Positions 7,664 to 7,974 are shown, counted from the stretch's first letter. The stretch is DNA of 14,244 bases from a virus (IMGVR_UViG_2859777919_000005); one strand, 5' to 3'. Numbers and translations are program-made. Notes: a model not told the origin generated them from the sequence alone.

Positions 7664-7738
7664 TGGAGCGGGCAGCGGGAATCGAACCCGCATCATCAGC
7701 TTGGAAGGCTGAGGTAATAGCCATTATACGATGCCCGC
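7664..7738 (-). tRNA. tRNA-Gly (anticodon UCC), glyT-like
   Basis: Reverse complement GCGGGCATCGTATAATGGCTATTACCTCAGCCTTCCAAGCTGATGATGCGGGTTCGATTCCCGCTGCCCGCTCCA folds as a cloverleaf (7-bp acceptor, D stem, anticodon stem TCAGC/GCTGA, loop CTTCCAA, T loop TTCGATT) with encoded CCA. Matches E. coli glyT from memory. Confidence 0.9.
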
Positions 7739-7741
7739 ATA

Positions 7742-7817
7742 TGGTGCCGACTACCGGAATCGAACTGGTGACCTACTGATTACAAGTCAGTTGCTCTGCC
7801 TGCTGAGCTAAGTCGGC
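7742..7817 (-). tRNA. tRNA-Thr (anticodon UGU), thrU-like
   Basis: Reverse complement GCCGACTTAGCTCAGCAGGCAGAGCAACTGACTTGTAATCAGTAGGTCACCAGTTCGATTCCGGTAGTCGGCACCA; anticodon stem ACTGA/TCAGT, loop CTTGTAA, encoded CCA. Confidence 0.9.
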
Positions 7818-7819
7818 GC

Positions 7820-7896
7820 TGGCCCACCACCGAGGACTCGAACCTCGCACCGTCAACTTAGAAGGTTGATGCTCTATCCGGATGAGCTAGTGGTGG
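7820..7896 (-). tRNA. tRNA-Arg (anticodon UCU), argN-like
   Basis: Reverse complement CCACCACTAGCTCATCCGGATAGAGCATCAACCTTCTAAGTTGACGGTGCGAGGTTCGAGTCCTCGGTGGTGGGCCA; acceptor CCACCAC/GTGGTGG, anticodon stem TCAAC/GTTGA, loop CTTCTAA, T stem CGAGG/CCTCG, encoded CCA. The unusual C1:G72 start makes the exact 5' boundary less certain. Confidence 0.8.
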
Positions 7897-7897
7897 T

Positions 7898-7974
7898 TGG
7901 TGGCCCTTGCTGGACTTGAACCAGCGACCTGGCGATTATGAGTCGCTCGCTCTGACCAACTGAGCTAAAGGGCC
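7898..7974 (-). tRNA. tRNA with CAU anticodon, ileX/ileZ-like (Ile2, lysidine-dependent) or Met
   Basis: Reverse complement GGCCCTTTAGCTCAGTTGGTCAGAGCGAGCGACTCATAATCGCCAGGTCGCTGGTTCAAGTCCAGCAAGGGCCACCA; anticodon loop CTCATAA. Overall close to E. coli ileX as I recall it, hence probably an AUA-reading tRNA-Ile2. Confidence 0.8.

Follow-up and report, generated by a model that had tools for sequence, protein, structure and literature searches.

The 14,244-bp stretch of viral DNA analysed here (“the window”) carries four tightly packed tRNA genes, which are probably best explained as a lambdoid tRNA cassette for codon compensation, housed in the variable slot bounded by the antiterminator gene Q and its terminator on one side and by the lysis genes on the other. 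The evolved job of the cassette would be a greater supply of four minor tRNAs. The array itself is an ordinary member of the known kind of cassette found downstream of Q in lambdoid phages, and its composition is widespread and already annotated. Our additions to this picture are modest: the rank of the cognate codons in the carrier prophages, a conserved putative cassette promoter, anticodon plasticity at the second position of the array, and an exact co-occurrence of one allele with ipaH.

Four intact tRNA genes

ARAGORN called four tRNA genes and no more in the window; all lie on the minus strand between positions 7974 and 7664, and their Rfam RF00005 scores of 56.4-70.5 bits exceed the gathering score of 29 (E-values 4e-10 to 5e-14). 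In array order, tRNA1 (7898..7974, 77 nt, 70.5 bits) is a tRNA-Ile2 with anticodon CAU, of the ileZ/ileX class; tRNA2 (7820..7896, 77 nt, 56.4 bits) is a tRNA-Arg with anticodon UCU on the scaffold of phage argN (C1-G72, A20, G73); tRNA3 (7742..7817, 76 nt, 69.8 bits) is a tRNA-Thr with anticodon UGU, equivalent to host thrU with two D-loop changes (U16C and U20C); and tRNA4 (7664..7738, 75 nt, 64.9 bits) is a tRNA-Gly with anticodon UCC, identical to host glyT at 75 of 75 positions. Each gene ends in an encoded CCA, and the intergenic spacers are, in array order, A (1 nt), GC (2 nt) and TAT (3 nt). The array is confirmed as a real and intact feature with a signal far above chance. The initial annotation had the coordinates, anticodons and layout right, as well as the encoded CCA on all four genes and the 1-3 nt spacers, and the fold and isotype check that it proposed, carried out with ARAGORN and Rfam, recovered four tRNAs with the anticodons claimed.

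Origin of the four genes

The first two genes belong with phage tRNAs. tRNA1 has 3 differences from ileZ of Stx phages and 8 from K-12 ileX, in agreement with the earlier view of the first gene as ileZ-like. TilS uses the acceptor-stem pairs C4-G69 and C5-G68 in lysidine-dependent tRNA-Ile2, and inspection of the acceptor stem of tRNA1 (GGCCCUU/AAGGGCC) found both pairs. By its sequence features, tRNA1 is predicted to belong to the Ile2 class (ileX/ileY/ileZ), as opposed to tRNA-Met; ARAGORN labels it Met because its anticodon is CAU. A gene identical to tRNA1 is annotated tRNA-Ile by PGAP in RefSeq genomes.

tRNA2 differs at 13 of 77 positions from the Stx-phage argN, at 11 from the Lys(UUU) allele found at the same place in a sister array (see below), at 21 from host argU and at 31 from argO. 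The second gene had been likened to argN, and the two do share the unusual C1-G72 scaffold, but tRNA2 carries UCU where argN has UCG (in Stx2a_F349 the annotated argN is UCG and argO is UCU). The analogy is therefore corrected to a shared scaffold with a different anticodon. The anticodon loop of tRNA2, CUUCUAA, is that of argU, and the D-loop, AUCCGGAUA, places an A at position 20; the discriminator is G. The identity elements for ArgRS are A20, C35 and U36, plus A or G at position 73. Judged by inspection, tRNA2 appears to satisfy these rules for a tRNA-Arg(UCU), and its aminoacylation with arginine would be expected.

The last two genes point to the host chromosome. tRNA3 has two differences from K-12 thrU (97% identical); of 95 phage Thr copies, 27 have this allele and 47 match the host gene exactly. 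tRNA4 has no differences from K-12 glyT, and neither do 79 of the 95 phage Gly copies. The junction between them, ACCA-TAT-GCGG, is exactly what would be left if the host sequence ACCAT[CAAGTCC...tyrU...CCAGG]ATGCGG lost tyrU along with its spacers. Beyond the Thr-Gly segment, the flanks of the array show no homology to the host thrU-tyrU-glyT operon. The proposal that the last two tRNAs are thrU and glyT without the intervening tyrU is thus borne out by 2 and 0 differences and a 3-nt junction. We suggest that tRNA-Thr(UGU) and tRNA-Gly(UCC) were captured from the host thrU-tyrU-glyT operon with a clean deletion of tyrU, and that the cassette arose by joining this host-captured pair to a phage-lineage pair (an ileZ-type Ile2-CAU and an argN-scaffold tRNA with UCU).

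Prophage context

The array follows a late antiterminator Q-like gene of the DUF1133 type (8164..8718, minus strand; longest ORF to 8838), identified by Pfam (DUF1133, 3.8e-107, and Phage_antitermQ) and by PHROG 753, “anti-termination protein Q-like” (1.8e-79). Its equivalent in a related locus (L006) is 555 nt long, and genes of the YbcO type and the NinB/DUF1367 type precede it. Downstream of the Q-like gene lies a tR'-like intrinsic terminator, a hairpin followed by a U-run (8062..8092, minus strand; -18.4 kcal/mol, z = -5.3). A GC hairpin with a T-run occupies the matching place in five of six aligned relatives, and the Stx2a sequence diverges there. A simple terminator scan of 7400-8400 returned nothing, which we treat as a false negative because folding gives a strong hairpin and U-run at 8092-8062. 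An Rfam scan of 7400-8300 returned only the tRNAs plus sub-threshold noise (isrK at 19.9 bits, Trp_leader, and antisense “Plastid-ycf2” matches on the tRNAs); the isrK-like match (8064-8137) overlaps the terminator hairpin.

Directly 3' of tRNA-Gly, folding predicts a long imperfect hairpin (7612..7657, minus strand), a putative element that may act in processing or termination; the block that contains it follows many Arg-type and Lys-type arrays, not all. In intact relatives, a holin gene is found ~290 nt past tRNA-Gly, followed by endolysin and spanin genes. In the window, the place of the holin and lysis genes is taken by an IS600-like element of the IS3 family (6220..7481, plus strand; 93% identical to IS600 of pCP301), which cuts the prophage 182 bp downstream of tRNA-Gly. 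None of the compared loci L013, L015 and L139 has an IS at the position corresponding to this 7481/7482 junction. The array, co-oriented with its surroundings, fits the lambdoid module slot downstream of Q, with the downstream side of the window cut by the IS. The position downstream of Q given in the initial annotation is upheld on both sides, by the Q-like gene and terminator upstream and by the holin that follows in intact relatives.

Rearrangement extends through the window. Self-BLAST revealed four IS600-like copies (492-1755, 6220-7481, 9894-11066 and 11740-13000), and there are two copies of IS1 (1893-2662 and 5409-6177). The Q-tRNA block and the early-gene block (2663-5410) stand in inverted orientation to each other, a fragment of a phage integrase is encoded at the left end, and the right end (13001-14214) is a tail-fibre/DUF4376 segment that in EIEC O121 (L139) lies directly beside ipaHe. 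The nearest matches to this context are S. flexneri SFBU1023, “E. coli” ECMA0423 and EIEC genomes. The IS insertions, the inverted block, the integrase fragment and the tail-fibre end therefore identify the window as a dead, collapsed lambdoid prophage of the ipaH-island type, of the Shigella/EIEC kind, cut by IS600-like and IS1 elements, and not as a host operon.

The latter had been named as the finding that would undo the prophage assignment, namely the tRNA operon upstream of tufB with its chromosomal flanks. We checked for it and rejected it: tyrU, thrT and tufB are absent, the flanks are phage and IS DNA, and the gap between Thr and Gly is 3 nt. The linkage to a prophage stands.

In this dead prophage, IS elements have replaced the lysis and morphogenesis genes, and the cassette stays intact. 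A doubtful reading of this state is that the four genes are leftovers that have not yet mutated and make no current contribution. It gains from the fact that IS insertions and deletions have cost the prophage its lysis and structural genes, from redundancy, since multiple copies reduce selection on each, and from decayed versions in related strains (L006 and L123), in which the Gly gene has become “Val-like” with anticodon UAC and an acceptor deletion and the Thr anticodon stem is broken. Because such copies decay, selection on every copy is not strict. Against an inert relic, however, neither the four genes nor the promoter-like element nor the CCA ends show damage, 22 other loci have an identical array, and with a promoter of its own the cassette would not depend on the dead phage for its expression. 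Since the cassette is intact and base-for-base identical to other copies, it most likely still adds to the tRNA pool of the cell.

A putative cassette promoter

A consensus scan placed a putative σ70 promoter immediately upstream of the array (7984..8013, minus strand), consisting of TTGCAG, 17 nt and TATTAT, followed by the 9-nt GC-rich sequence TCTGCCTCC and then tRNA1. Of 115 arrays, 103 retain both hexamers and their 17-nt distance, with a varying sequence in between, and conservation upstream of the arrays climbs from ~0.45 to 0.70-0.78 within the last 40 nt only. Fixed hexamers and spacing with a variable spacer sequence are the pattern expected of a real promoter, and the element is predicted to function as one. 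It resembles the promoter of host thrU.

The putative promoter sits downstream of the tR'-like terminator, and the cassette follows different Q families in different prophages (DUF1133 in the window, another family in L139). Several unrelated flanks follow the last tRNA, which sets the 3' boundary of the cassette immediately behind that gene. We infer a self-contained unit of promoter and tRNAs with two routes to expression: its own σ70 promoter would permit transcription in the lysogen, and Q-antiterminated read-through would be added after induction. Compared with a moron-type unit, which would bring both a promoter and a terminator of its own into the late operon, the cassette shows the promoter-like element but a long hairpin in place of a canonical terminator.

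Codon usage of the carrier prophages

To compare codon usage, we drew 72 genes (11,407 codons) from three carrier prophages and 42 chromosomal genes (14,748 codons) from K-12. The four codons named for the array were among the most enriched by ratio: AGA ranked first of 61 (1.3 per 1000 codons in the host, 9.6 in the carrier prophages), AUA third (2.5 and 10.3), GGA fifth (6.1 and 15.3) and ACA seventh (5.5 and 13.6). Between them, at ranks 2, 4 and 6, came AGG, CGG and CGA, all codons served by the Arg tRNAs with UCU or UCG that module variants carry. Sorted by absolute excess instead, the list was headed by GGA, AGA, AAA, ACA and AUA, corresponding to the five anticodons seen across the module family. 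The chance of finding the four named codons in the top 7 (or top 5) of 61 is ~1e-4 to 1e-5, a probability that is indicative only because the thresholds were chosen post hoc. TCA, AGT and AAT are also enriched ~2-fold in the carrier genes, and the module has no tRNA for them.

The suggested comparison of AUA, AGA, ACA and GGA between linked prophage genes and host genes thus gave strong over-use in the former. The accompanying description of the four tRNAs as all decoding A-ending codons holds in that their cognate A-ending codons are over-used, but it is too narrow, because tRNAs with U at position 34 also decode G-ending codons by wobble.

These ranks give good support to codon compensation, which would follow from this supply and demand, with AUA, AGA/AGG, ACA and GGA being used 2.5 to 8 times more in phage genes and linked cargo such as ipaH than in host core genes. 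The enrichment is correlative and comes in part from the lower GC content of mobile DNA, the host baseline comprises 42 genes only, and the phage genes set to benefit are mostly gone from the window. In the literature, codon compensation has been argued for phage SfI, in which a Thr-UGU gene lies downstream of Q and ACA is used at 17.3 versus 7.1 per 1000 (PMC3636060). A study of lambdoid phages with 2-3 tRNA genes found their codon adaptation to be no better than that of phages without them (PMC4631060).

Relation to known tRNA clusters

One close relative is the ileZ-argN-argO cluster of Stx phages (Stx2a_F349, 933W type). Like the array, it is placed between Q/tR' and cargo or lysis genes. 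Its first gene, ileZ, is almost the same as tRNA1 (3 differences in 77 nt), its second gene has the C1-G72 scaffold, and the conserved promoter-like element again lies 5' of the first tRNA. The strict Stx cluster has the anticodons CAU, UCG and UCU, the last from argO, whereas the window has CAU, UCU, UGU and UCC: the second gene reads UCU instead of UCG and differs at 13 positions, and argO is absent, with Thr-UGU and Gly-UCC in its stead. The window also lacks toxin genes, and unlike the Stx type, which has a canonical terminator past the last tRNA, it has only the long hairpin after tRNA-Gly.

Another is the Ile-Lys(UUU)-Thr-Gly array, by far the commonest form in E. coli, which shares the four-gene layout, the spacers and the downstream block with the Arg-type array of the window and is 96-100% identical to it in tRNA1, tRNA3, tRNA4 and the flank. 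It differs at position 2, where it has UUU, C33, U73 and a mismatch in the T stem, in contrast to UCU, U33, G73 and a perfect T stem in the window. Between Arg-type and Lys-type arrays we counted 11 differences in the 77 nt of tRNA2, 3 in the 77 of tRNA1, 2-3 in the 76 of tRNA3, 0 in the 75 of tRNA4 and 3-4 in 182 nt of downstream flank. This concentration in tRNA2 argues that position 2 is a swapped or fast-evolving allele in a conserved backbone.

The resemblance to the host operon thrU-tyrU-glyT-thrT-tufB is confined to the Thr and Gly genes (97% and 100%) and to a 3-nt junction consistent with direct derivation; the neighbours in the window are prophage genes and the flanks are unrelated. 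Helper plasmids such as pRARE/Rosetta and CodonPlus-RIL apply the same logic with largely the same genes (ileX, argU, glyT and thrU), relieving the limitation for AUA, AGA and GGA that AT-rich foreign genes impose in E. coli. They differ from the cassette in being engineered and plasmid-borne and in carrying extra tRNAs, e.g., leuW and proL.

The Asn(GUU)-Thr(UGU) pairs of SfI, Sf6, ST64T, P21 and HK446 share the slot downstream of Q, a Thr-UGU gene and the concept, but their sequences are unrelated and the partner tRNA differs. The Thr gene of HK446 has 23 differences from thrU and 25 from tRNA3; the Asn-Thr genes of HK446 are unannotated in its record. These pairs bear on a further explanation, that the cassette replaces tRNAs destroyed during infection by tRNases of the host or of a prophage, e.g., P2 OLD, which restricts lambdoid phages. 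According to a 2026 preprint, five tRNAs, Thr(UGU), Gly(UCC), fMet, Val(UAC) and Pro(UGG), are depleted by P2 OLD, a classic system against lambda. The preprint adds that OLD-sensitive phages were rescued by viral Thr(UGU) tRNAs, the one from lambdoid HK446 among them, whereas the Thr(UGU) of E. coli itself had no effect. Two of the five targets are the host-derived pair of the array, and HK446 carries its Asn-Thr(UGU) genes in the same slot between Q and holin. In addition, position 33 is C in the Lys(UUU) sister allele and U in host lysT, a change of the kind described for evasion of anticodon nucleases (PMC10264068).

For the alleles in the window, we consider an anti-defence supply very unlikely. 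Expression of the host Thr(UGU) gave no rescue in the preprint, and the resistant Thr of HK446 departs from thrU at the 23 positions noted above. OLD cuts after nt 27-29, in the anticodon arm, and because the anticodon arms of Thr and Gly in the window are identical to those of the host, resistance of these two tRNAs to the nuclease would not be expected. Likewise, the anticodon loops of the Ile and Arg genes equal those of ileX and argU. We have therefore largely rejected a role of these alleles against OLD or other anticodon nucleases; the Lys(UUU) sister allele with C33 might be a different story. Codon compensation remains our preferred explanation of the array.

Distribution and co-occurrence with ipaH

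We surveyed 5,426 complete E. coli genomes, counting the array when at least 80% of the array region was present. About 499 genomes carry it, most of them as the sister form with a second gene annotated Lys(UUU); an Arg-type position 2 as in the window was found in only 16, and 10 of these are exact. The Lys(UUU) form is also present in three GenBank phage records (vB_EcoS-689R5, vB_EcoM-606R7 and PhiR47_1). Scans of IMG/VR for the position-2 scaffold and of GTDB representative genomes for the Thr-Gly fusion yielded ~50 Ile-Lys-Thr-Gly arrays, ~31 Ile-Arg(UCU)-Thr-Gly arrays, ~23 Stx-type Ile-Arg(UCG)-Arg(UCU) arrays and a few other combinations. Among the loci compared, 22 others carry the 311-nt array of the window without a single base changed, S. 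flexneri SFBU1023 and FDAARGOS_944 among them; it is present in dozens of IMG/VR contigs and is annotated tRNA-Ile/Arg/Thr/Gly in RefSeq. The suggestion that the four-member composition might be undescribed has to be withdrawn in view of these copies and of the Lys form. A literature search on ileZ/argN/argO and on Ile/Arg/Thr/Gly prophage arrays found nothing specific on the exact composition, and tRNAs go unmentioned in a published ipaH survey.

The Arg-type allele has a narrow distribution. Exact matches to the 86-nt tRNA2 region are present in 10 of the 5,426 genomes, with 2-5 copies each, and ipaH was found in exactly those 10 genomes (EIEC), all of which have pINV-type plasmids. In at least 6 of these genomes, the distance between ipaHe and a copy of the array is 10-27 kb, and S. 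flexneri SFBU1023 has three arrays. The ipa-mxi-spa genes of pINV use AUA at 34.1, AGA at 17.8, ACA at 21.6 and GGA at 15.0 per 1000 codons, and the sum of the four is 88, compared with 15 in the host core.

One interpretation of these numbers is that the cassette has become a domesticated host asset, with the Arg(UCU)-type cassette kept by Shigella and EIEC in multiple copies in dead prophages for translation of the AT-rich T3SS genes of the virulence plasmid and of the ipaH effectors, and not for the phage. The shared 10 genomes, the repeated arrays, the proximity to ipaHe and the codon usage of the pINV entry region all lean this way, as do the intact state of the array amid a shredded prophage and the tail-fibre segment at the end of the window, the one next to ipaHe in L139. 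However, hitch-hiking on ipaH-carrying prophages would alone explain the co-occurrence, and the ten genomes are phylogenetically non-independent. Moreover, a Lys-type array is also found in Shigella (L016), and some of the EIEC copies are decaying (L006). On balance we regard domestication as unlikely, and somewhat less likely still its more specific form, in which the Arg(UCU) cassette is a pathotype-linked translation aid whose 2-5 constitutively transcribed copies on ipaH prophages were retained after the death of the phage for decoding the plasmid T3SS (34% GC) and ipaH. Domestication is compatible with codon compensation, of which it would be the later history.

Discussion

For annotation, the value of this analysis lies in recognizing a genuine, intact prophage tRNA cassette, as opposed to the host operon upstream of tufB or a set of pseudogenes. 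Apart from the equivalence with argN and the suggestion of novelty, the biology of the initial annotation largely holds. The cassette appears to be a self-contained promoter-tRNA unit that has been shuffled among Q types. Because the anticodons of the module family read the codons most over-used by the carrier prophages, it would be an unusually clean illustration of codon compensation. If the co-occurrence of the Arg(UCU) allele with ipaH reflects function and not linkage, it would tie prophage tRNAs to the expression of AT-rich virulence genes.

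The second tRNA gene is the divergent segment of the array

The phage scaffold at the second position of the array, which carries a C1-G72 pair, was found with three anticodons: UCG in the argN gene of Stx phages, UCU in the window and UUU, labelled 'Lys', in the sister arrays. For this comparison, the window gene (7820-7896) was set against its counterparts in comparison loci L002/L003 (6095-6171) and L005 (3095-3171). The three alleles differ from one another at 11-13 positions pairwise, with compensatory changes in the stems. In arrays that are 96-100% identical elsewhere, position 2 is the segment that diverges. 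In the UUU allele, position 33 is C (U33 in host lysT), position 73 is U, and one T-stem pair is an A-C mismatch.

Shifted anticodons were also observed on scaffolds derived from host thrU, in an IMG/VR array (L120), in phage SerU-LTIIb (L144, 1122-1197) and in loci L078 and L089. In one case, UGU has become UUU within an Ile-Arg-'Lys'-Gly array; elsewhere UGU has become UCU, giving 'Arg'-Gly pairs in an LT-IIb toxin prophage. These scaffolds lack A20, so that their 'Lys' and 'Arg' identities are putative.

Two copies of the window-type array are decaying, one in EIEC RMDEC332 (L006, 3234-3384) and one in L123. In these copies the anticodon loop of the Gly gene now reads UAC ('Val'), and a deletion has shortened the 3' strand of its acceptor stem; in the Thr gene, the anticodon stem is disrupted.

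Elements flanking the array

A sub-threshold isrK-like match on the minus strand (8064-8137; 19.9 bits, E = 0.08) spans the interval from the Q-like gene to the terminator. The short pR'-tR' transcript that occupies this same position in Gifsy-1 and Stx phages is a source of regulatory sRNAs. On the other side of the array, a long hairpin on the minus strand (7612-7657) lies directly 3' of tRNA-Gly, and the same block follows many, though not all, of the Arg-type and Lys-type arrays. The hairpin is imperfect, a T-run appears ~25 nt further on, and the element is not a canonical terminator.

The surrounding prophage and its insertion sequences

IS elements make up about half of the window. Four IS600-like copies (492-1755, 6220-7481, 9894-11066 and 11740-13000) are 93% identical to the IS600 of pCP301, and an ORF resembling rve/Mu transposases is present at 10966-11682. 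Two IS1 copies in inverted orientation (1893-2662 and 5409-6177) enclose a block of prophage early genes whose orientation is opposite to that of the Q-tRNA block. A sok antisense RNA (4994-5168, plus strand; Rfam RF01794, 118 bits), part of a hok/sok-type toxin-antitoxin locus, sits in this early region. The left end encodes a phage integrase fragment on the minus strand (1-507). At the right end, a tail-fibre/DUF4376 segment on the plus strand (13001-14214) is 95% identical to a segment of EIEC O121 (L139, 29240-30451) that adjoins ipaHe, which makes it possible that an ipaH gene sits just past the window's edge.

Thr(UGU) genes outside the four-gene array

The RefSeq record of phage HK446 (NC_019714.1) annotates zero tRNA genes; ARAGORN detected Asn(GUU) and Thr(UGU) at 35097-35252, between pR' and the holin gene. 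It is this Thr(UGU) that has been reported to act against P2 OLD.

Citrobacter braakii (L010) and Enterobacter hormaechei (L011) carry Thr(UGU)-Gly(UCC) pairs that lack the Ile and Arg genes but have the same short junction as the window array. The Citrobacter pair adjoins a homologue of the window's Q region (81% identity). The occurrence of such pairs without Ile and Arg in other Enterobacteriaceae, in one case beside a Q-region homologue, suggests that the Thr-Gly pair is a mobile sub-module in its own right.
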